Assembly: GCA_048885865.1 (NCBI GenBank)
Contig: JBHLLF010000060.1
Coordinates: forward strand, 1 to 13,722
Reading direction: 5' to 3'
Length of the DNA: 13,722 nucleotides
From: Candidatus Hermodarchaeota archaeon
Lineage (GTDB): Archaea > Asgardarchaeota > Thorarchaeia > Thorarchaeales > Thorarchaeaceae
The notes beneath the pieces are model-generated. The model saw only the letters and a list, made by a program, of their open reading frames with translations, was not told the origin of the DNA and searched no databases. Within the stretch, counting starts at the first letter, position 1. Every line of letters begins with the position of its first letter. Shown piece after piece: positions 1-13,722 of the stretch. A program made the position numbers and the translations under genes.

Positions 1-3000
1 ATTGTTGCAGCTAGACTGGAGAGACCTAACTCCATCAAAGGTTGTCTAATTGGATTCGGTAAAGGTATCCATGAAATGATTAGTAGATAAACTGATACGC
101 CAACCAACGCGGCACGAGCGATGCCCAAGAGCATACCGGTCCTTTCACCTATAGTCAGTCTCGGCATGAACCGGAGGATTTCAAGGGCGACCAACACGGC
201 AAGCACCAAGTTGATGGTCATGAATGGGCTCAAGACTAGTGCTATAGCAATCCCAGTTGAGGCTGCAAAAACAGTCCATGTTACCTTGGTCCGAAGCTGC
301 TCAGGTATTGAGAGAAGCATTGATTCAAGCGCAACATAACCAGCAACAACAAGCGCCGCGTCGAGTGTATACAAATAGAAGTGCCAAAACAGGAAGGCGA
401 GCAAAGCACCTGTGACAACCGGATAAGCAAGAAGCACTCTATTGGCTTTGCTGAGAACTGGCGTCGCAATGAGCCCAAGACCAAATACGGCTAGAAGTGC
501 CTTGGATATGGGGTCGAATGGTGCCAAATAGAGACCTAGCAGCAATGCAGCACTGATTGCGAATGCTGCAAACTGAGCTTTTTGCTTAAAGAGGAGCGTC
601 AGAGGTGTCGATATTGAGAATAGAGCTGAAAACAGAGTAACTGCGCCAAGTATGTTCAGAATTGGATCTGTGATTTGAAGCAGCACAATCAAGTCAAGGC
701 TGACTACTGCACAAAGGATGATGAGTGCTATCGAATGGAGCCGCAGATTCTCAGACCTGCGAAGATGGAGAGCAGGAAGCCAGATGCACATACAGGTTAG
801 GATGAAGGTAAGTGCTGTTGGTGCTATGGGCACTGGATAGAAGGAGAATATTGGCACCAAGTAATAAACGAGTAATGAAGCGATGATGACTGAGAACAGA
901 GCAACAGCTGCCACAAGATGGATTGCAATGTACGCTAGGAAAACTTGCAGTGCCATCAACGCAGCAGCACCAAATGAAACAATTGCGCGCCAATATTGCC
1001 TGTAGGCGACCGGAATTGGCACCAAGAGCAAAAGGATGAAACTAAGAGTGTAGTTTGCAAAGTATAAGTGCGCCAACAAGGTAACGGAGGGAACGGCGAG
1101 CGCGATATAGAGGGCATTGACAATTCGAGGGGATCCGCCCATCAGTCTCAGAGGCAGCAATCCGAAGCCAAACAGAGCCGATGCTGAGAGAGCTGACTGG
1201 ATTTCTCCAAAACTCATGACGGTTTCTAGGAATATCCATGAGGATACCAGAGCAAGTATCATGAGCCAGGTTGTTGGGACGAAGTAGACTCTGATGGTTT
1301 CAGAGAATTTGCTTTTAGCTAGGGTTACCGCAAGGCAAGTGGCGGATACAGATGCAAGAAGACGAATTACAGCATGCAGCAGTTCCGTATAGAAGAACAC
1401 GAGAACTCCAAGTCCCAAAGCCGCTCCCAATATGCAGACTTGCAGGAGATAGGAAGGAGATTTTTCAGCTCGTCCGATAGCAGGCGCATACGCTAGGAAG
1501 AATGCCAAAGAAATCCAACCAATAATCGGTAGCGGGTCGTAACTGTAGAAAGGCGCAAGCCATTGCCAAGCTACGAACGCTAATCCGGCAAGCACAAACA
1601 CGGCCCATGATATGAGAATGAATTTCAGCAAGAATTGGCCTATGGAAATGAGTGCACGATGAAGGGCTGCTCCAAGTCTGCGAACTCCGAGCACAAGTGC
1701 TCTTCCAGCCCTTATTGCCGCAGCTGAAATCCATCTTCCAGCTTTGCGGTATTCGATATGGAGAATGGGTCCAGGCAATATAGCAACAAGCAGCAGTGTC
1801 AGAATGGGGAGCTCGTTCGACTGTATGGGGTCTTCGAACATCAGGGCCAGGAATAATGCTGCAAGTACCCCGGGCAAATATGCCAATCCAGTGTGGACTC
1901 GATTGAATCCAAGCCTCAATAAAGCAATCGAGCCTAGGAACCAGAGTAAGGAATAGAACACTGAATCTAAAACATCGATTGCCATAAAGTAGTAGAATTG
2001 CCAGAATGTGATTAAAGCCAATGAACCAAGAAACAGGATGAGCGCTAATGATAGATAGCGATGACGGTTTGACAGGCTTCGAAAGACTAGGAGACCGACA
2101 ATCCCCACTCCAGCAAACAAAGCGGCAAGTACACCTAGAATTGAAATCGGATATCCTGGCAATGGCTGCAGCATTGGGTTGATGTAGCTGAATAGAATAA
2201 TGCAGAGCGTCAGATCGGCGATAATTCCTGTCACGAGCATATTGCTCATAATCCATGCCTTGAGGTCTCTAAGACGACCTACTATTGAAAGCCAAATCCG
2301 TCTCCAGATTCTTCGTATCCATCTGAATAGGCCTGTCATTCCTGCGACAAACAAAGCAACCGATATTGTGAAGGAAATGAACACTGGCCAAAGATAGTAC
2401 TGAGTCCAAAGAAAGCCACTAACCGAAGCGATAGATACTATTGCCACGCCTATCGCTCTTACAGCCATATATTCTGAATCTCTAGTTAATCGCTCGCCCA
2501 ACCTGAAGAGAACTGGAGATGGCGCAAGGATTAGCAATCCGATGATGAATGCGATTGGTCCTATTAGATGAATTTCCGTCCCCCATATGCTTGGCTCGGA
2601 TAACCAAAGGAAGATGGATGGAATGCCTGCGGCCACAAGAATGAGTGAAATCCCTGACAGCGTATTGGCGTCCTCAGGAACGATTATCCTTTCTTCAGGA
2701 ACTGGTGGGCTCTCCTCATCCTCTTCGACAGCGGCTGCTAGCCCGATTTCTTCAAGAAGAGTGGTTCTGCGCTTCTTCTGCGATTTGCGAATCCATCTTG
2801 TACCTGCCCATGATTGGACACGCTTGGCGCATTGGGAAGTGATGAATAGTGTTGCGCCAAGCGTCACCAGAAATCCGGACACCAATAGAATGGGTGACAG
2901 AGCCGCGGAATTGATCAGGAAGTCAACAGTCAACATAGGTGGAGCGAGTGAAATGATGATTACATTAGGTACACCCAATCGAGCATACTTCTGCAAGTAT

Positions 3001-3533
3001 TGGAGTGCAATCGCGTAGATGGAAAGAGCCCCAATAAAGCCTGCCAGGATGAAGTAGATAGCGGTAGTGGTTTCCAAAAGCCAAAGCGCAAATGCAAGTG
3101 GGCCCGTCAATAAGATAGCTGGACCCAAAACCCACCCGACTCTATGAAACGTCTCATCTGAGATTCCTTCCCTATTTCGTAAGCTATTCAAAATCATGAT
3201 CGATGCTAATAGAAATCCATGAAGACTTAGAATAGAAGCCTGCATTGATTGCCATAATAGAGCAAGTGAAAGAGCAACGACGCCTGCACTCATGAACAGG
3301 AGAATTGTGCCTGAAAGCACCCTTTTCCTCCACACCAAAATGGACCCTGCAAGTGCAAGGCTGACTGACGTAGCTATTAACATCTGAACAAAGGTATCCT
3401 GCACAAAAGGCTGAATCAGGAAATAGGAAGCAAGCCAGACTGCTGCTGACACAATAAGAAGTACGGCAATAAGGGCGAAGAGCTGAATCCTATCTGCCCA
3501 ACGACTCGCTCTCTCGAATCCGTTTTCCTGCAT
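1..3533 (-). CDS. Giant polytopic membrane protein, 3'-truncated by the window edge (>=1177 aa, about 37-39 TM helices visible); not in the ORF track
   Basis: Manual translation from ATG at 3533 reads MQENGFERASRWADRIQLFALIAVLLIVSAAVWLASYFL... with no stop through position 3 (...PIRQPLMELGLSSLAAT). An in-frame TAG (3534-3536) immediately upstream fixes the start. The protein is a continuous series of ~20-aa hydrophobic segments with K/R-rich loops on alternate sides (positive-inside rule). The track probably missed it because it has no stop codon in the window. Confidence 0.95.
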   Translation of the reverse strand, partial: MQENGFERASRWADRIQLFALIAVLLIVSAAVWLASYFLIQPFVQDTFVQMLIATSVSLALAGSILVWRKRVLSGTILLFMSAGVVALSLALLWQSMQASILSLHGFLLASIMILNSLRNREGISDETFHRVGWVLGPAILLTGPLAFALWLLETTTAIYFILAGFIGALSIYAIALQYLQKYARLGVPNVIIISLAPPMLTVDFLINSAALSPILLVSGFLVTLGATLFITSQCAKRVQSWAGTRWIRKSQKKRRTTLLEEIGLAAAVEEDEESPPVPEERIIVPEDANTLSGISLILVAAGIPSIFLWLSEPSIWGTEIHLIGPIAFIIGLLILAPSPVLFRLGERLTRDSEYMAVRAIGVAIVSIASVSGFLWTQYYLWPVFISFTISVALFVAGMTGLFRWIRRIWRRIWLSIVGRLRDLKAWIMSNMLVTGIIADLTLCIILFSYINPMLQPLPGYPISILGVLAALFAGVGIVGLLVFRSLSNRHRYLSLALILFLGSLALITFWQFYYFMAIDVLDSVFYSLLWFLGSIALLRLGFNRVHTGLAYLPGVLAALFLALMFEDPIQSNELPILTLLLVAILPGPILHIEYRKAGRWISAAAIRAGRALVLGVRRLGAALHRALISIGQFLLKFILISWAVFVLAGLAFVAWQWLAPFYSYDPLPIIGWISLAFFLAYAPAIGRAEKSPSYLLQVCILGAALGLGVLVFFYTELLHAVIRLLASVSATCLAVTLAKSKFSETIRVYFVPTTWLMILALVSSWIFLETVMSFGEIQSALSASALFGFGLLPLRLMGGSPRIVNALYIALAVPSVTLLAHLYFANYTLSFILLLLVPIPVAYRQYWRAIVSFGAAALMALQVFLAYIAIHLVAAVALFSVIIASLLVYYLVPIFSFYPVPIAPTALTFILTCMCIWLPALHLRRSENLRLHSIALIILCAVVSLDLIVLLQITDPILNILGAVTLFSALFSISTPLTLLFKQKAQFAAFAISAALLLGLYLAPFDPISKALLAVFGLGLIATPVLSKANRVLLAYPVVTGALLAFLFWHFYLYTLDAALVVAGYVALESMLLSIPEQLRTKVTWTVFAASTGIAIALVLSPFMTINLVLAVLVALEILRFMPRLTIGERTGMLLGIARAALVGVSVYLLIISWIPLPNPIRQPLMELGLSSLAAT

Positions 3534-3628
3534 CTACATCCCCGAATACCATCGCGAATCCACAGAAAATTGGCGTCTTCTGAGGCAGAAGAAATCCTGT
3601 GGTGGCATCTAATATTAGGGAATTTGCA

Positions 3629-3645
3629 TTAATAAATTCGCTTCG
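3629..3645 (-). promoter_or_regulatory. Putative archaeal BRE-TATA promoter for the giant membrane protein gene
   Basis: Minus strand reads CGAAGCGAA-TTTATTAA (purine-rich BRE-like element followed by a TATA-like box), about 95 nt upstream of ATG 3533. Confidence 0.5.
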
Positions 3646-3729
3646 CTTGATTAAAACACTTCAAGCAATCCTTTTATCGACAATTTCGAAGGTTCAAATG
3701 AATGGTTCCTTCACGAGGATGCCAGCTGA

Positions 3730-3736
3730 GGGGTGA
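3730..3736 (+). promoter_or_regulatory. Ribosome-binding site (GGGGTGA) for the 3740 gene
   Basis: GGGGTGA is an archaeal-type Shine-Dalgarno sequence and ends 3 nt before ATG 3740. Confidence 0.7.
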
Positions 3737-3739
3737 AGC

Positions 3740-4270
3740 ATGCCAGAGAAAGTTGAGTGCCGTTATTGTAGTGCTATAAATGACCTAGGCGATGCGGAGT
3801 GTGCCAATTGTGGAGCCAACCTATCTGATGCCATCACACATGTTTCATGTGACAGATGTGGAATCCTCCTCAGAGAAGGGATAGATCCGGTAGGGCATTG
3901 CGTCGTATGCCAAACACCTGTTTTCCTCTGTGAAAAGCATAGGAAAAGAGTGGAGGATGATGAGGTCTACTGCAGAGAACATGAAACAGAGTGCTTTATA
4001 GCTACAGCTGTTATTGGCACTCCACTTCATCCGAAAATCGACCTTCTGAGAGAATTCCGAGATGAATGGCTTTCTGGCAGACTAATAGGCCGCATCGCAA
4101 TTCGGACCTACTACGATGTATCTCCGCCCATTGCTCGACGTGCAAGGCGAAATGACCGAATTCGGATGATTCTTCAACAGTTGATAGTGGAACCAGGTCT
4201 CAAGCTTGCACGAATAGTTCTCGGAAAGGAAGCCCATCCTCATCCCTTGAAAAGACACAACTCAAACTGA
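3740..4270 (+). CDS. Multi-zinc-ribbon/zinc-finger protein with C-terminal CFI-box-CTERM domain
   Basis: The N-terminal half has CRYC..CANC, CDRC..CVVC and CEKH..CREH ligand pairs. The C-terminal half, CFIATAVIG...LREFRDEWL...GRIAIRTYYDVSPPIA, matches the CFI-box-CTERM signature (CFIATA...LRxFRD...GR...YY..SPPxA). Good RBS. Confidence 0.88.
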   Translation: MPEKVECRYCSAINDLGDAECANCGANLSDAITHVSCDRCGILLREGIDPVGHCVVCQTPVFLCEKHRKRVEDDEVYCREHETECFIATAVIGTPLHPKIDLLREFRDEWLSGRLIGRIAIRTYYDVSPPIARRARRNDRIRMILQQLIVEPGLKLARIVLGKEAHPHPLKRHNSN

Positions 4271-4308: not shown

Positions 4309-4345
4309 CCTACAATTGAACGTGGTGAGTGAGGACCTGCCGATA

Positions 4346-7096
4346 ATGAAGGAATTTCCTCCAGAAACGAAATTTCGCTATACCTGGAGACCATATCAAG
4401 CACGTGTTCTGAGTGAGCTTGAAGAATACCTAGGCGACAACCGACTACACGTCGTTGCGGCTCCAGGGTCTGGAAAAACGCTTCTTGGATTGGAAGTTAT
4501 GAGAAGGCTGAACCAACCATCGATTATCCTAGCTCCTACCCTAGCAATCCGCGATCAATGGGTCTCAAGGCTTGTGGACTTTTTCATGCCTGAATGCAAT
4601 GAAACACCGGATTGGATTTCAACTGATATCTACCATCCGAGATTTGTGACAGTTTCAACGTACCAAGGCCTCTACAGTGCATGCTCTGGAGTTCTAGACG
4701 ACGACGAAGATTTCGACCTTGAAGAAATCGAATCAGAGGATGAGGATTCATTCAATAATGATTACTCAGAGGATATCGGAGAAGAACTCAATGAGTACAA
4801 TATAACCAGACTGCTACAAGAGTTATCGGTCAAGACAGTTGTCTTGGACGAAGCGCACCACCTCCGATCAAATTGGTGGCGTTGCTTGACGAGAGTTGTG
4901 CACGGACTGAAGGAAAGCACTGTTCTGGCGCTGACAGCAACACCCCCATATGATGTTTCGATGTTTGAGTGGGAACGATACATGGAGTTATGCGGCCCGA
5001 TAGATGCGGAGGTTTCTGTGCCTGAGCTTGTTCAGGAAGGGAATCTTTGTCCTCATCAAGACCTCGTTCTCTTTACATATCCTAGTCTTATTGAAGGAAA
5101 CAAGCTCAAGGAATTCAAGCAAGCAGTTGATGAGTTTGTTAAGGACCTTGAGTCAGATGAGGAGTTCCTAGGAGAGGTAAAGAACCACCCCTGGCTGAAC
5201 GACCCCGAAACGTTTGTGATTGAAATTCTAGATGACCCATCATTCTTCTCTAGTATGCTTGTCTACCTGAAACATCGCAAGGTAGTTCTACCAAAGCAAG
5301 CTATCGAGCTCGTTGCCGGTGAGCAGTTTGGAATTCCTTGGTTCGGCAAGGAATGGTTGGAAACTCTGCTCGAAGGGATGCTATTTCCCCCCGATGTTGA
5401 CCCTAGGGACTTGTCTCCAGTCCTGAAAAGAGTGAGGGATAGGCTCTATCGAATTGATGCTCTTGAGCGAAGAGATGTGAATCTGCATAGTACTAGGAAA
5501 CTGGATGCTGTTCTGAAACGAAGCATCACAAAGCTGTATGCTGTTCAAGCAATTGTGTCCATGGAACTCAAGGCGCTTGGTGAGAACCTTCGTATGGTCA
5601 TCCTTACAGATTACATAAGGAAGGCCTATCTCCCCAAGAGTGAACATGACCTTCCGAAATTGGATAGGATTGGTGTGGTGCCAATCTTTGAGGAGATTAG
5701 GCGATCGAATCTCAGTGGCATAAAGCTTGGTGTTCTTAGTGGTTCCTTGATAGTTGTTCCTACTGAGTCAACTGAACTCCTCCTTGAATGTGCTGATGAT
5801 TGTGAAATCCTTCGCGAATCAGTTTCAGTCAAACCCATTGCTGACCCAAGATTCTCAATGGTGACTATCAAGGGCATAGACAGGCAAAAGGCAGTACAGC
5901 TCATCACAGAGCTTTTCTCTAGGGGCGGGGTAACTGTCCTTGTAGGCACAAAGTCACTCCTAGGAGAAGGATGGGATGCACCATCAATCAACTCACTTGT
6001 GCTAGCGAGTTTCGTTGGATCCTATATGTTGTCCAACCAAATGCGAGGACGAGCTATCAGGACTGACCCAGAGCAGCCTGATAAGACATCCAATATCTGG
6101 CATCTGGTCTGTGTGGACCTCGACTCTGAGAGTGCAGGAAATGACTACCGCATTATGGAGAGACGCTTCAAGGCGTTTTTGGGAATATCCTTTGTTGAAT
6201 CAATTATAGAGAATGGTTTTGGCCGCCTTGGGGTTGGAGTTCCGCCATTTGACAAAGACGAGGTCCGGGAAATCAACTCATCAATGACAGCAAGGGCGAA
6301 GGACAGAACAGCTCTACAATTGGCCTGGGAGACTTCTCTTAGGCGAGGTGAAGAAGGAATCCGACTTGTAGAGGAAGTGAAGGCCAAAAAAGCACGACTT
6401 CCAGTCCCTCGAGGATTTGTTTTCAGGAATACCATCTCAGCACTCACCTGGGAAGTTCTGTTCCTATTCGGCTTCTTTGTTGCTCGGCAGATATTCTCGT
6501 GGGTTCTTCCGATTGGCAACCTTGGCTTGTCATTTCTATCATTTCTACCGATGCTTGGATTTCTCTACTTCATCCTCAGGTTTGCCCCAAAAGCGCTGAA
6601 GGCGATCTGGCTGTTTATCATGCACGGCCCTATCAAATCTAGCCTTGCTCAAGTCGGGAAAGCTGTGCTAGCCACCCTTTGCGAAGTTGGTGTAGTCAGA
6701 ACCTCATTTAATGATATGAGAGTTGTAGTGGAAGAAGGAAAGAAGGGTGAAGTTTTCTGTCATGTGGAAGGTGGCACAAGAAGAGAAAGAGCGACATATC
6801 TTAGTTCACTCAGGGAAGTACTGGGTCCAGTCGGATCTCCTAGATACCTTCTTCTAAGAAAATCAATGTTGGGAAACTCATTTGTTAGAAAGGACCTTCA
6901 TGCTGTTCCGACTGTTCTAGGAATCAAGAAGGTATATGCTGAATCCTTTGCGTCTCAATGGAAGAAGTACGTCGGTGAGATGGATTTGATTTATACTCGC
7001 AATAAGGAAGGGCGAATTGTACTACTCCGTGCTCGGAATCATTCACTCTCAGCTGGATTTCGACCTCGCTCTGAAAGGATCAGCCGTTGGAAGTAG
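4346..7096 (+). CDS. SF2 DEAH-box helicase (ResIII/SSL2-like) with a C-terminal two-TM hairpin
   Basis: Q-like motif WRPYQ, motif I AAPGSGKT, Ia APTLAI, II DEAH (4847-4858), III LTATP, V LLGEGWDAP, VI QMRGRAIR. Hydrophobic pair at about 6430-6620. ATG 4346 with upstream GGTGAGTGAGG is preferred over the track's TTG 4316. Confidence 0.92.
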   Translation: MKEFPPETKFRYTWRPYQARVLSELEEYLGDNRLHVVAAPGSGKTLLGLEVMRRLNQPSIILAPTLAIRDQWVSRLVDFFMPECNETPDWISTDIYHPRFVTVSTYQGLYSACSGVLDDDEDFDLEEIESEDEDSFNNDYSEDIGEELNEYNITRLLQELSVKTVVLDEAHHLRSNWWRCLTRVVHGLKESTVLALTATPPYDVSMFEWERYMELCGPIDAEVSVPELVQEGNLCPHQDLVLFTYPSLIEGNKLKEFKQAVDEFVKDLESDEEFLGEVKNHPWLNDPETFVIEILDDPSFFSSMLVYLKHRKVVLPKQAIELVAGEQFGIPWFGKEWLETLLEGMLFPPDVDPRDLSPVLKRVRDRLYRIDALERRDVNLHSTRKLDAVLKRSITKLYAVQAIVSMELKALGENLRMVILTDYIRKAYLPKSEHDLPKLDRIGVVPIFEEIRRSNLSGIKLGVLSGSLIVVPTESTELLLECADDCEILRESVSVKPIADPRFSMVTIKGIDRQKAVQLITELFSRGGVTVLVGTKSLLGEGWDAPSINSLVLASFVGSYMLSNQMRGRAIRTDPEQPDKTSNIWHLVCVDLDSESAGNDYRIMERRFKAFLGISFVESIIENGFGRLGVGVPPFDKDEVREINSSMTARAKDRTALQLAWETSLRRGEEGIRLVEEVKAKKARLPVPRGFVFRNTISALTWEVLFLFGFFVARQIFSWVLPIGNLGLSFLSFLPMLGFLYFILRFAPKALKAIWLFIMHGPIKSSLAQVGKAVLATLCEVGVVRTSFNDMRVVVEEGKKGEVFCHVEGGTRRERATYLSSLREVLGPVGSPRYLLLRKSMLGNSFVRKDLHAVPTVLGIKKVYAESFASQWKKYVGEMDLIYTRNKEGRIVLLRARNHSLSAGFRPRSERISRWK

Positions 7097-9207: not shown

Positions 9208-11487
9208 ATGAAAAAGAACCAGAAGCGAGCACTGGCGAAGATAGCTATCTTTGTTCCATTGGCATTGATAGCCACAATTATAGCTATTGGAGGCTTGTAT
9301 ATCGTTTCCACTACAACCACCTCCCGTGTAGGAGCTCATTCCCTTCTATCATACTGGGCATCAATCCCAGCAGCCATCCTGGTTCTAGCATTTGTTAGGC
9401 GTCCCTCCAAATCCTTGGCAGCATTCGCAGCCGCCCTCCTCTTTCCCATTATGGTGAACATTGGAAGTGCAATCAGCTACTTGACTGGACTTATAGCTGC
9501 TCCCGAAGTGAAGAATCTCGCCAATCTTGTGACAGATATATACGAGTTTGCAGTTTTTGGTGCCTTCATCCTGGTAGCTTTGACCACGCGCCAAGATCCA
9601 AGCCAAGAGAAGAGAATGACAGCTCGTTTGGGCTTTGCTATTGGCTTCGCTTCTGTATTCATCCCCGGAGCACTTTACGGCGTCATATGGTTCTTACTAA
9701 TTCCACCTATGACGACAGATATTCTAATCTACTTCGGAGCCTCCACAGCGCTCTCTGGCGTCATAATCACTCTTGCTGCCGTCTACCTCTTGATTAAACA
9801 CGGATACAAGGAGCTCTCCGTAGACATTGGGTATTTCGCTAGTGCATGTATACTCTCTGCAATTGCTATTTGTGTTTTAGTAGCAGAAATGTTCCTTTCA
9901 TCGGCCCTCTGGATATACGCTGAAACAATACAGATGGCATCGTACTTTTTGATTACAATTTCCCTTTCTGTTCCCTTTCTTAGAAAGGTAGGATATGATA
10001 GGATGACGGCATATCTCATTATTACTGCACTGGTTTTGCTCTCCTACTTGCCATTCACCATCACAATTGGCATTGAGGCTGCAGGTTTCCATCAGATAAT
10101 CGAACCGATGAACACTCTAGCATTCTCTATAATCCATATTGGAGTGGCGTCTCTCTCAATCATGATGGGATTCCTTCTCTTTGCGTACTCAAGACGACGC
10201 CCTTCAAGGAACCTCTATGCTCTCATCATGCTATTTGTGCTCTGGGCCGAAGTGGCTACAGTTTCCGTGCTAACAGTATTGCCACTTGAATTCGCGCCTC
10301 GGGGAGAGCCAATCGTATCATATCTAGTTGGCAGCATTCTATCAATCCCACTCTTGTATCTCGCTGCACGTTGGACTCCAAAGAACCATCTGCAAGAAGA
10401 CAGGCCTCCTTCATCATGGCTACTTCTTGCAGGGTCGTTTGTCATGCTGGGAGCTGTCTTGGCTGGAGAGATTGGAAATCAGCTTGTTTTACAACAATAC
10501 CCGCTGCTTTCTGGAAGCCCCCTAAGTAATTCCATGCTTCTGTTTGCAAACTTGCTGCTAATCTTCCTGATAACATACTTACTATTCACACAGGTTGAGA
10601 TATCTGGGGGTCAAGCCTCAATCGGAGTCTATGTCGTCCTATTCTTGTCGATGTGGATAGTCCCGAACGTGCTCAAGAGCTACTACAATATATGGACTGC
10701 AGGCTGGTGGGTCTCAGAGATTCTGATATTGCTTGCCCTAATGATAGGCCCAGCATTTCTAGGCCTTTTATACATGCGAGCAATGCGGGATGCAGAAGAC
10801 TCTCACTCAAAGGCAACCCTTTATGCAGACCTCCTTATGCATGACATTAGTAATTACCACCAAATGCTTCTAACCGCCGTCGAACTATTGGGAGAAGGAG
10901 AAACAACAATCGAGCAGCGAGAACGTCTCTCAGGTGACGCGTATCACGTAATCTCTCTTGCAGAGCAGCTCATCACCAATGTACGCCTAATAACTGAAAG
11001 CGAAGATCTTCAGAGAGAATCACTCAACCCGCTTAATCTGATGGAAACGCTAGTTGAATCCCTTGATAGGGTTATGCGAGTCGCTGGAGGCAAAGGTGTT
11101 AAACTGCAACTAATGCCATTCAGTGCGCAGGCTTATGTTCTTGGTAGCGGCGTGCTGAAGCATGTCTTCATCAATATAATCCATGGTGTCCTTTTGCAGC
11201 CTATGGAGGCATCAAGCATCAAAATTGAGATTCAGCCTCGTGTTGAAATGGGCTCTGAATATTGGATTGTCCGAATCTTCGTTCCATCCTGGTGGACGGA
11301 TATTGGGAGTGATGTGTCTCCCCCCGAATCTCAAGAAGATTACAGTGGCACTGCACTTGGACTTCTTGTATCACGGCTAGTTGCAGAGTCGTTGGGCGGA
11401 ACCATTACGGTTTCAAAGAAAATGCAAGAGCCGGATATGGGCACTCTATTTCAAGTTCTCCTGCCTGCATATGGGAGAGAGTCTTGA
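9208..11487 (+). CDS. Membrane-bound sensor histidine kinase-like protein (about 16 TM; intact H-box, degenerate ATP-binding domain)
   Basis: About 16 hydrophobic segments in residues ~12-525. H-box ADLLMHDISNYHQ (His545). N-box region VFINIIHGV. G2-like GTALGLLVSRLVAESLGGTI and terminal GTLFQVLLP. Confidence 0.88.
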   Translation: MKKNQKRALAKIAIFVPLALIATIIAIGGLYIVSTTTTSRVGAHSLLSYWASIPAAILVLAFVRRPSKSLAAFAAALLFPIMVNIGSAISYLTGLIAAPEVKNLANLVTDIYEFAVFGAFILVALTTRQDPSQEKRMTARLGFAIGFASVFIPGALYGVIWFLLIPPMTTDILIYFGASTALSGVIITLAAVYLLIKHGYKELSVDIGYFASACILSAIAICVLVAEMFLSSALWIYAETIQMASYFLITISLSVPFLRKVGYDRMTAYLIITALVLLSYLPFTITIGIEAAGFHQIIEPMNTLAFSIIHIGVASLSIMMGFLLFAYSRRRPSRNLYALIMLFVLWAEVATVSVLTVLPLEFAPRGEPIVSYLVGSILSIPLLYLAARWTPKNHLQEDRPPSSWLLLAGSFVMLGAVLAGEIGNQLVLQQYPLLSGSPLSNSMLLFANLLLIFLITYLLFTQVEISGGQASIGVYVVLFLSMWIVPNVLKSYYNIWTAGWWVSEILILLALMIGPAFLGLLYMRAMRDAEDSHSKATLYADLLMHDISNYHQMLLTAVELLGEGETTIEQRERLSGDAYHVISLAEQLITNVRLITESEDLQRESLNPLNLMETLVESLDRVMRVAGGKGVKLQLMPFSAQAYVLGSGVLKHVFINIIHGVLLQPMEASSIKIEIQPRVEMGSEYWIVRIFVPSWWTDIGSDVSPPESQEDYSGTALGLLVSRLVAESLGGTITVSKKMQEPDMGTLFQVLLPAYGRES

Positions 11488-11527: not shown

Positions 11528-12388
11528 CTAGTTCATTTTATGCCCAGCAAAAGCTACTCTTTGCATCGGATAATCGATTACTAGCTCATAATCCCTCAAG
11601 AATGGATAGCCAATTACACCATAGTCAAGCTTTTGACCATTTGGAGAGATCACCCCGAGATCAATCACTCCCATGACGGTGTCAGAGAGCACTGCGGAAC
11701 CTATCGAGATGCTTCGGACCATTGCACCATAGCCCATCGCTCTCCCGCCCACTCCTATGCATTCGCCTCCTGAGCATCCTTTAGCAATGATTGGCTCGCT
11801 CGACGGGGTTGTTATACCAATCTCACTTGCCACCGTTGGAGTCATTACATTGCCACTCGAGCCAGTGTCTAGGATGTGATCAAAAGGTCCTTTGCCATTA
11901 ATGTATACTGGAACACCAATAAGGTGTGAGTCCATTAGATACTTGAATGGAATCCATTCAAATGCTTTCATAGTGTCAGATCCATTACTCTCCTCAAGAC
12001 TCAGTTGAAGAGTGCCGTAATTAAGACCGACTCTGAAATTCTTGAGAATTGTGTGTCCAATAACTCCTGCAGTCGGACCGCAACCAGTGGTCCCCAACAC
12101 ATTGGCGAAGTCAATTACACCAACTTCTTCATCCTGAAATTGTAGGAATCCTATTTCTAGCGATTCAATCTTCGCAGTCAAAACAGGGAGTTCATTCCCG
12201 CCGACTCCGCGTGCCTTTTTCTTCTCTCCCACATAGGTAGGTATTCCTAATTCCTCAACAAGGGAGCTGGATACCGTAGTTATACTTGCACCAGTATCGA
12301 GAACAAAGACAAAGGGCCCCTTTCCATTGATCATCACAGGCACATGAGGATGGCCCGACCCTGGACCTAATTGAATTTTCATCTGCAT
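11528..12388 (-). CDS. Aspartyl protease with two tandem retropepsin-like domains
   Basis: The two halves each have VPVxINGKGPF, a catalytic DTG (FVLDTGAS D31; HILDTGSS D174), a GVGG flap and GVIG-x-x-hydrophobic-L. SD-like GAGGA upstream. Confidence 0.92.
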   Translation of the reverse strand: MQMKIQLGPGSGHPHVPVMINGKGPFVFVLDTGASITTVSSSLVEELGIPTYVGEKKKARGVGGNELPVLTAKIESLEIGFLQFQDEEVGVIDFANVLGTTGCGPTAGVIGHTILKNFRVGLNYGTLQLSLEESNGSDTMKAFEWIPFKYLMDSHLIGVPVYINGKGPFDHILDTGSSGNVMTPTVASEIGITTPSSEPIIAKGCSGGECIGVGGRAMGYGAMVRSISIGSAVLSDTVMGVIDLGVISPNGQKLDYGVIGYPFLRDYELVIDYPMQRVAFAGHKMN

Positions 12389-12400
12389 GGTTGCATCCTC

Positions 12401-12462
12401 TAGATATATACCTATCTCACGTCTGAGATATATTAACCTATCTCAATGTAGAGATATATTAA
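12401..12462. promoter_or_regulatory. Tandem palindromic operators (TATCTC-N6-GAGATA x2 plus a half site) overlapping TATA-like boxes
   Basis: TATCTCACGTCTGAGATA (12413-12430), TATCTCAATGTAGAGATA (12439-12456) and a half site TAGATA (12401-12406). Minus-strand TTAATATA at 12429-12436 and 12455-12462 overlap the sites. Confidence 0.75.
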
Positions 12463-13629: not shown

Positions 13630-13704
13630 TGTGAAGAGAATTGAGGGCAATTTTTGCAGGCGACTTTTTATGCGAATCCACAATTGCGAAAATGGGTAGT
13701 GACA

Positions 13705-13722
13705 ATGCTACAAGTCTACAAC
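13705..13722 (+). CDS. cysS: 5' end of a gene, probably cysteinyl-tRNA synthetase
   Basis: ATG CTA CAA GTC TAC AAC = MLQVYN, which resembles the typical CysRS N-terminus (M-x-x-h-Y-N-T-L). Preceded by GGTAGTGA and a TTTTTAT box at 13665-13671. Only six codons are visible. Confidence 0.45.

Follow-up and report, generated by a model that had tools for sequence, protein, structure and literature searches.

Piezo1 and Piezo2 are eukaryotic mechanosensitive channels with 38 transmembrane helices per protomer, arranged as nine four-helix units and a pore module, and DUF2339 (Pfam PF10101) comprises bacterial membrane proteins that also have many helices. In papers, Piezo is described as the protein with the most transmembrane segments. 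Here, we analyzed a 13,722-bp stretch of DNA from a Candidatus Hermodarchaeota archaeon (GTDB family Thorarchaeaceae; assembly GCA_048885865.1), hereafter the window, which is the whole of contig JBHLLF010000060.1 (G000:C60) and whose minus strand encodes the first 56% of a 2,085-residue membrane protein, hereafter the giant protein. With about 60–67 predicted membrane helices against the 38 of Piezo, this would, if the predicted topology is true, be the most polytopic single chain yet described by a wide margin. It is a real, conserved, and lineage-specific integral membrane protein that is nearly all α-helical and shows no detectable signature of an enzyme, a transporter, or nucleotide binding, and its gene comes with a defined candidate partner, a divergently transcribed gene for a small zinc-ribbon protein.

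The giant protein resembles Piezo in being a very large and nearly all-transmembrane chain with repeated modules, interfacial amphipathic helices, and a distinct and conserved C-terminal module. In contrast, its repeat spans about 258 residues and eight helices rather than the four-helix unit of Piezo, an extracellular cap domain is lacking, and it belongs to an archaeal protein family that is confined to a single taxonomic family. Moreover, no Piezo Pfam model was matched with hmmscan at an expectation value (E) of up to 1, either by the two halves of the protein (P0001 in the window and P0002 beyond it) or by 17 family members. A preliminary description made from the sequence of the window had named Piezo for comparison while claiming no homology to it, and indeed none was found with hidden Markov models (HMMs). 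The proteins of DUF2339 are much shorter than the giant protein and share with it a polytopic, loop-poor, and uncharacterized chain with dozens of helices. However, they too gave no HMM match at E up to 1 with P0001, P0002, or the 17 members, and the sole link was an ESM Atlas feature score of 0.76, which is at chance level, to a cluster with 46% of its members in the family. The preliminary likening to DUF2339 is accordingly an analogy only.

Gene model and completion across contigs

The window part of the gene (P0001, codons 1–1177) is an unbroken minus-strand frame, complement(3..3533), which starts at an ATG (3531..3533) and meets no stop before the first base of the window. This start codon follows a Shine-Dalgarno-like block, GGGGATG, that is invariant in six members of the genus, and Met1, Ala13, and Asp14 are conserved in the family. 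Given a GC content of 47%, a frame of this length would stay open by chance with a probability of ~(61/64)^1177, or roughly 1e-25. The coding strand has a high T content (AT skew of 0.24, plus strand), and Leu, Ala, Ile, Ser, Val, and Phe together make up 61% of the residues in the protein. A DNA repeat search revealed nothing relevant inside the gene, and an Rfam scan of the window gave no match. Since the gene is open-ended and larger than the contig, it was hidden from the track of open reading frames (ORFs), where it is listed only when open-ended frames are allowed. The preliminary description had the frame as at least 1,177 residues long, running off the window, and absent from that track, and all of this holds: on translation of complement(<1..3533) we found neither a stop nor a frameshift, and the frame continues on a second contig, C82.

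The connection between the two contigs is a 77-nt overlap, in which window positions 1..77 match the end of C82 (G000:C82:9026-9102) exactly and which occurs only once in the 117-contig genome, as is typical of an assembly-graph overlap. When joined, C82 (L003:6301-9102, minus strand) and the window give a frame of 2,085 codons with its stop at L003:6301-6303, and this gene is single-copy. The join is validated by the genome of Candidatus Thorarchaeota archaeon TM1S.110 (G015) from the same genus, as there a collinear ORF of exactly 2,085 residues, 93.9% identical by position to the joined protein and free of indels, lies on one 345-kb contig. In fact, orthologs of 2,085, 2,086, 2,096, and 2,101 residues are each found on single contigs, with the 2,086-residue one (G010) showing 79–81% identity. 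Moreover, contigs from three further sediment runs reach past the first base of the window, and the gene sequence is free of indels or joints within 1-3600 in the contigs of four sediment runs. None of the listed sequencing runs that contain the sequence is recorded as RNA. At the other end of the window, the last 77 nt (13646..13722) recur in reverse complement at the end of contig C55 (L004, G000:C55; 14,861 bp), and with these overlaps at both ends, C82, C60, and C55 probably adjoin one another in the genome.

The ratio of nonsynonymous to synonymous substitution rates (dN/dS) against the TM1S.110 ortholog is 0.20 overall and 0.15–0.26 in each of five regions, and thus the whole length of the gene is under purifying selection. 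This has a bearing on whether the gene could be an artefact, i.e., the product of mis-assembly, a frame left open by chance in T-rich DNA of low complexity, or a functionless gene in decay. Here, one could point to the split over two contigs and to the interruption of two relatives, namely a single in-frame TAG in the G388 ortholog (G388:C7:149337-155468) and a TGA that splits the G023 ortholog (G023:C20, L019:6064-12368) into frames of 1,274 and 870 residues, although these interruptions could be sequencing errors, pseudogenes, or recoding. Against this, however, stand the full-length collinear orthologs in nine genera, the dN/dS of 0.2 along the entire length, the same indel-free sequence in four runs, and the absence of repeats in the DNA, and in our view an artefact is already refuted, with a negligible chance of being the right explanation.

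Distribution of the family

An exhaustive phmmer search with P0001 against 1.84 billion representatives returned 29 proteins, all of which belong to the giant family and whose full-length members have 2,033–2,447 residues. The records that carry an organism name are metagenome-assembled genomes (MAGs) of Thorarchaeota or Promethearchaeota, which agrees with the earlier suggestion of an archaeon, possibly Asgard, and the public annotation is "hypothetical protein" throughout. When 400 genomes of the phylum were searched with a profile, the gene was located in 25 of the 85 genomes that one family contributes (nine genera), and it was not found in the 315 searched genomes of 32 other families, with many of the genomes being incomplete. 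Among the genomes searched, the giant protein is therefore specific to one Thorarchaeota family. Asgard membrane biology, which includes protrusions and possible membrane remodeling, bears on ideas about the origin of eukaryotes.

Predicted topology

In a Kyte-Doolittle scan, the joined 2,085-residue protein has 61 transmembrane-like segments at a threshold of 1.5 and 67 at 1.2, and the 1,177-residue window part has 36–38. An AlphaFold2 model of residues 1–1177, built on a 20-sequence alignment, is all-α, with a predicted local distance difference test score (pLDDT) of 75.4 and a predicted TM-score (pTM) of 0.43, and contains 35 clearly hydrophobic helices plus four that are short or split. 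The 37–39 helices given for this part in the preliminary description were thus a fair count. Ten helices are seen in the AlphaFold2 model of the C-terminal 334 residues (1752–2085; pLDDT 87, pTM 0.75), and the middle part outside both models has 15–17 hydrophobic segments. Together, these values give a total of about 60–67 predicted membrane helices, so that the size that was called exceptional at the outset turns out to be larger still.

The hydropathy profile shows autocorrelation peaks at 28 and 56 residues and the Lys/Arg profile at 60 residues, with a further peak at 234 residues, while Lys/Arg-rich loops alternate with loops that are free of Lys and Arg. Based on this periodicity and alternation, the chain is a regular array of positive-inside helical hairpins, comprising at least 30 hairpins of ~56–60 residues. 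The basic loops listed in the preliminary description are all present (RKR at 69–71, RNRE at 119–122, RSLSNRHR at 485–492, KSKF at 740–743, HLRRSENLR at 923–931, and KQK at 983–985), and their proposed placement on alternate sides is consistent with the alternation being kept in the 17-member family alignment. By the positive-inside rule, the N-terminus and the Lys/Arg-rich loops would be cytoplasmic. All of the predicted outer loops are short, and these outer turns are rich in Trp, Tyr, and Pro. The only long loop (residues 234–290; 2664..2834, minus strand) is predicted to be cytoplasmic and is first basic and then acidic, with 10 Lys/Arg and 11 Asp/Glu in 57 residues; it has a low pLDDT at 254–277, and Gln234, Gln240, and Arg246 are nearly invariant.

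Another feature of the predicted topology is an Arg/Trp-rich amphipathic, putatively interfacial helix at residues 403–430 (2244..2327, minus strand), which bears the motif FRWIRRIWRRIW and has a low hydropathy of 0.65 over 404–430. In this helix, Phe403, Arg407, Trp410, Trp414, and Trp427 are invariant or nearly so. Amphipathic helices rich in Arg and Trp recur along the chain, being found at 403–430, ~595–637, ~844–860, ~1539–1566, and ~1735–1772. As for conservation overall, 100 columns reach a level of at least 90%, 79 of them being Gly, Pro, Phe, Trp, Leu, Tyr, Ala, Val, or Ile, and the conserved ionizable residues in the predicted transmembrane cores are limited to His105, Arg1140, and Glu1315. 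The preliminary description had also found no soluble catalytic or nucleotide-binding motif, and no such domain is recognizable, nor is any Pfam or NCBIfam domain.

Repeat modules and C-terminal domain

The giant protein contains two tandem repeat modules, designated M1 (residues 488–745; 1299..2072, minus strand) and M2 (residues 746–1003; 525..1298, minus strand), with M1 having about eight transmembrane helices and a central basic segment that starts at the invariant Tyr595. When compared with hhalign, M1 and M2 align over the full 258 residues with a probability of 97.7%, an E of 1.7e-12, and a score of 107, whereas the best score of any 258-residue window in a reversed-profile control was 37. 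Tyr847 in M2, which is likewise invariant, corresponds to Tyr595 in M1, with each of them opening the basic segment of its module. There may be a third and weaker copy at residues 1658–1884, for which hhalign gave a score of 51 and a probability of 73%. The repeats are detectable by hhalign alone, as a BLAST self-comparison of the 2,085-residue chain revealed no internal repeat and an ungapped profile dot-plot produced only a marginal signal. Moreover, relatives of 2,256–2,306 residues match profile positions ~737–988 twice in tandem, which means that the copy number of this eight-helix module of ~250 residues varies.

The last ~300 residues (1786–2074) form the most conserved block of the giant protein and are modeled as ten packed helices without a soluble insert. 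This C-terminal ten-helix domain is separable, since a stand-alone gene for 308 residues (L031:10046-10972, G390:C116) has 40% identity (E of 1e-44) to the last ~290 residues. In the genome in question (G390), which is 99% complete, neither the remainder of the giant gene nor the zinc-ribbon partner is present, and the neighbors of the stand-alone gene (amidohydrolase, Mut7-C RNase, and PHP) are unrelated. Other candidates for stand-alone homologs of this domain were only fragments, with one of them (P0034) being a chimera with a HlyD piece. Of the conserved C-terminal pore or oligomerization module that had been envisaged for the protein, the conserved block is present, but nothing marks it as serving for a pore or for oligomerization.

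Searches for known families and folds

No known sequence family or fold is matched by the giant protein. Neither half matched anything in Pfam, NCBIfam, PADLOC, or PHROGs, no recurrent weak family emerged from Pfam-A in 17 full-length members at E up to 1, and a profile search of PDB sequences gave 0 matches at E up to 10. Likewise, the transporter superfamilies (MFS, RND, ABC-2, APC, MOP/MurJ, and others) were without a Pfam or NCBIfam match, the best fold matches in this respect, to a ferroportin homolog (E of 0.32) and to MurJ/Polysacc_synt clusters (ESM Atlas TM-score below 0.32), were at noise level, and the ESM Atlas feature search with P0002 reached 0.84, a chance-level score. The protein is thus, as first described, uncharacterized and without a confident full-length match to a known family. 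We found no paper in the literature that describes this family; the PSP/LiaI-LiaF-TM system (PMC11237479), which was considered as a candidate, has no relevance to it.

For the C-terminal model, a Foldseek search against the PDB gave no match at E of 0.001 or better (best, 0.32, to a ferroportin homolog), VIA-align gave a Z of 9.2 over 108 residues against a stated helical noise level of ~13, and the ESM Atlas shape search gave TM-scores of 0.38 or lower. For the 1,177-residue model, the best Foldseek matches were soluble α-solenoids (E of 0.014–0.4), and the best VIA-align match was the Bro1 domain at a Z of 10.8 and a root-mean-square deviation (rmsd) of 9.3 Å, which is again below the helical noise. 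The α-solenoid proteins concerned (TPR/HEAT/ARM; IFT-A subunits, STAG/SA2, Ski3, and the Bro1 domain) share an antiparallel array of helical hairpins with the giant protein, yet they are soluble, and with TM-scores of 0.15 or lower and an rmsd above 9 Å their matches fall below helical-repeat noise. These matches would mean only an "array of helical hairpins", and any likeness is confined to the overall architecture at most. Piezo, channels, and transporters were absent from these matches, a Piezo chain was listed for neither model, and the labels of curvature- or tension-sensing and channel-associated protein in the preliminary description have no direct support, although with a pTM of 0.43 for the larger model the absence of a Piezo chain from the Foldseek and VIA-align matches does not exclude this fold.

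One explanation that these searches address is a channel or transporter, possibly force-gated in the manner of Piezo, where the hairpin arrays would provide a membrane footprint and a conserved core, such as the C-terminal ten-helix domain, perhaps oligomerized, would conduct ions or solutes. This would fit with the C-terminal domain being the most conserved block with a confidently predicted fold, with the invariant His105, Glu1118, Arg1140, and Glu1315 lying in or at membrane helices, and with an arm of repeated modules followed by a distinct C-terminal module being the Piezo plan in outline. However, HMM searches matched no Piezo, channel, or transporter family, the structural comparisons gave no significant Foldseek match and only sub-noise VIA-align scores with no Piezo chain listed, the uniformly short outer loops leave no cap-like extracellular domain, and conserved polar residues are very sparse for a chain of at least 60 helices. 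On balance, we regard a channel or transporter as unlikely.

In our estimate, it is quite improbable that the giant protein acts enzymatically within the membrane or handles lipids, for example as a scramblase or transporter of lipids or a translocase of polymers or glycans, and has diverged too far for recognition. Many polytopic enzymes (GT-C, MurJ/Wzx-like) indeed lack soluble domains, and clusters of PMT_2 and MurJ/Polysacc_synt are among the weak ESM Atlas shape matches of the C-terminal domain, at TM-scores of 0.26–0.31, but such values, being below 0.5, are at chance level. In fact, the PMT_2 match (TM-score of 0.28) is the sole link to the GT-C glycosyltransferases, from which the giant protein differs in having no Pfam match and in its short and aromatic outer loops with almost no conserved Asp or Glu. 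A conserved acidic outer-loop motif is lacking, and the vicinity contains no conserved genes for glycosylation or lipids, with the downstream genes differing between genera.

The divergent zinc-ribbon partner gene

The partner gene (3740..4270, plus strand; P0032) encodes 176 residues with three zinc sites, i.e., two CxxC...CxxC zinc ribbons and a C-x2-H...C-x2-H site, followed by a CFI-box-CTERM domain (NF041770). This domain was recognized with 75.6 bits against a cut-off of 40, and with 77.6 bits in a genome search, where it was the only NF041770 match. The CFIATAV motif is invariant in six partner orthologs, and the orthologs are named in NCBI as CFI-box-CTERM domain proteins. While the partner passes the curated cut-off for CFI-box-CTERM proteins, it differs in that here the domain follows three zinc sites, and it shows no recognized family beyond the zinc ribbons and the CFI box. 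We know of no function for the CFI-box-CTERM domain, and no mention of the CFI-box was found in the literature. Searching PDB sequences with a profile of the partner returned only generic zinc-ribbon ribosomal proteins at E of 0.036 or worse, and the ESM Atlas feature search gave a chance-level score of 0.86. We infer that the partner is cytosolic.

In all 12 of the distinct genomes with the 5' end of the giant gene, the partner lies divergently ~200 bp upstream of it. Both genes occur in 20 genomes of the family, with most discordant cases being fragmented MAGs, and all 34 detectable partner homologs are from Thorarchaeota wherever the organism is named. Across genera, the partner retains 47–58% identity versus ~30% for the giant protein. 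A complex prediction for the partner and residues 1–460 of the giant protein yielded no verdict (score of 0.00), and binding of the two proteins is neither favored nor disfavored by it.

The intergenic region between the two genes (206 bp; 3534..3739) has a mean identity of 81% among six aligned loci of the same genus whose proteins differ by 20–30%, and contains the invariant blocks GATAAAAGGATTGCTTGA (an 18-mer), GCGAAnTTATTAATG, and GCCACCACA. A likewise invariant TATA-like box, TTATTAATG, is situated ~95 nt before the ATG of the giant gene, and GCCACCACA lies in the presumed leader. The conserved blocks would appear to be TATA-like archaeal promoter elements, and possibly they are regulatory elements shared by both genes.

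This arrangement could be taken to mean that the giant protein serves in the membrane as a sensor or anchor by which a zinc-ribbon/CFI-box effector (a nucleic-acid binder or RING-like factor) is sequestered or activated, as in membrane-tethered regulator pairs. Consistent with this are the divergent gene pair with its strongly conserved intergenic blocks, the higher conservation of the partner, its three zinc sites, and an ESM Atlas match (score of 0.81) to a cluster with Prok-RING_2 in 75% of its members, which is to be read as a lead only. On the other hand, no DNA-binding or E3 domain was found in the partner at curated thresholds, at least 60 helices go far beyond what sensing or anchoring needs, and in one genome (G344) the partner is retained although the giant gene is absent. 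Such a role seems rather unlikely to us.

Possible function

We tentatively prefer to view the giant protein as a non-enzymatic structural platform or scaffold inside the membrane, with interfacial basic helices and a docking place for the zinc-ribbon partner, a reading that is plausible, if short of an even chance. Here, a very large and rigid array of helical hairpins would lie within the membrane, its interfacial basic helices would sit on the inner leaflet, and the array would organize, stiffen, or shape a patch of membrane and dock the cytosolic zinc-ribbon partner. This scaffold is favored because the conserved columns are mostly apolar, Gly, or Pro, ionizable residues in the core are few, and there is no soluble domain. 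Moreover, the weak best fold matches of the 1,177-residue model are α-solenoids, and docking of the partner is supported by the 12/12 synteny and the co-occurrence of the two genes.

Several observations speak against a scaffold. No structural match supports any function, and with a pTM of only 0.43 for the 1,177-residue model the overall shape, be it a ribbon or solenoid or else a compact bundle, is not established. The helix count is based on hydropathy and AlphaFold2 rather than on a dedicated topology predictor, and the invariant His105, Glu1118, Arg1140, and Glu1315, which lie in the membrane or close to it, might just as well indicate a path for ions. The pairing of the two genes is also not obligatory: the closed 3.16-Mb genome G344 has the partner (G344:C1, L033:10282-10815) but no giant gene, neither beside the partner by tblastn nor elsewhere in the genome by profile search, and G390 lacks the partner and has only the C-terminal domain of the giant protein. 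From G344 it follows that the partner can persist alone; the ORFs adjoining it there, which sum to ~2,000 residues and were considered as a frameshifted giant gene, are unrelated by tblastn.

A more specific possibility, to which we assign a fairly low probability, is that the scaffold is a membrane-embedded α-solenoid, i.e., a curved ribbon of hairpins with more than 60 helices that would shape, stiffen, or sense the membrane and be read out or positioned by the partner, making it a functional analog, not a homolog, of the Piezo blade. If this were true, the archaeal lineage closest to eukaryotes would harbor a membrane protein whose architecture defines a new class. Regardless of its function, the giant protein is a clear target for structural biology with respect to how at least 60 helices are inserted, packed, and used.

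Neighboring genes

Beyond the partner, the genes around the giant gene vary. Downstream synteny is not conserved across genera, as an ABC-2 transporter and a HEAT protein are found here and a NiFe hydrogenase in G024. Matching lengths had suggested a conserved downstream ABC-2 operon (an ATPase and two proteins of ~280 residues), but by Pfam the G024 counterparts are NiFe-hydrogenase/oxidoreductase subunits. At the 3' end of the giant gene, a convergent gene on C82 (L003:5782-6312, plus strand) encodes a 176-residue P-loop protein (AAA_18/kinase-like) and overlaps the last 12 nt of the giant gene. As a candidate for a conserved neighbor this gene was rejected, since it is kept within the genus but its place is taken by an Ssb-like OB-fold gene in G024.

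On the same strand as the zinc-ribbon gene and 46 nt downstream of it, the window carries a gene for a 926-residue superfamily-2 helicase of the ResIII/DEAD-box type (4316..7096, plus strand), which has weak PADLOC matches (PbeA, type I REase, and Cas3b; E of ~1e-8 to 1e-5) and whose position is conserved in G015 and G010 and not in other genera. Further along, a 759-residue protein (9208..11487, plus strand) has as its sole recognizable part a weak C-terminal HATPase_c domain (E of 2e-4, below cut-off), and could represent a sensor kinase that has diverged, with 650 residues of unassigned sequence in its N-terminal region. A 286-residue protein (11528..12388, minus strand) contains two tandem retropepsin-like aspartyl protease domains (Asp_protease_2, E of 5.6e-30) and looks like a pseudo-dimeric single-chain form of retropepsin in an Asgard archaeon. 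Between the gene for this protease and the next ORF, there are two adjacent 26-nt direct repeats (12404..12455), ATATATACCTATCTCACGTCTGAGAT and a variant, that are 73% identical.

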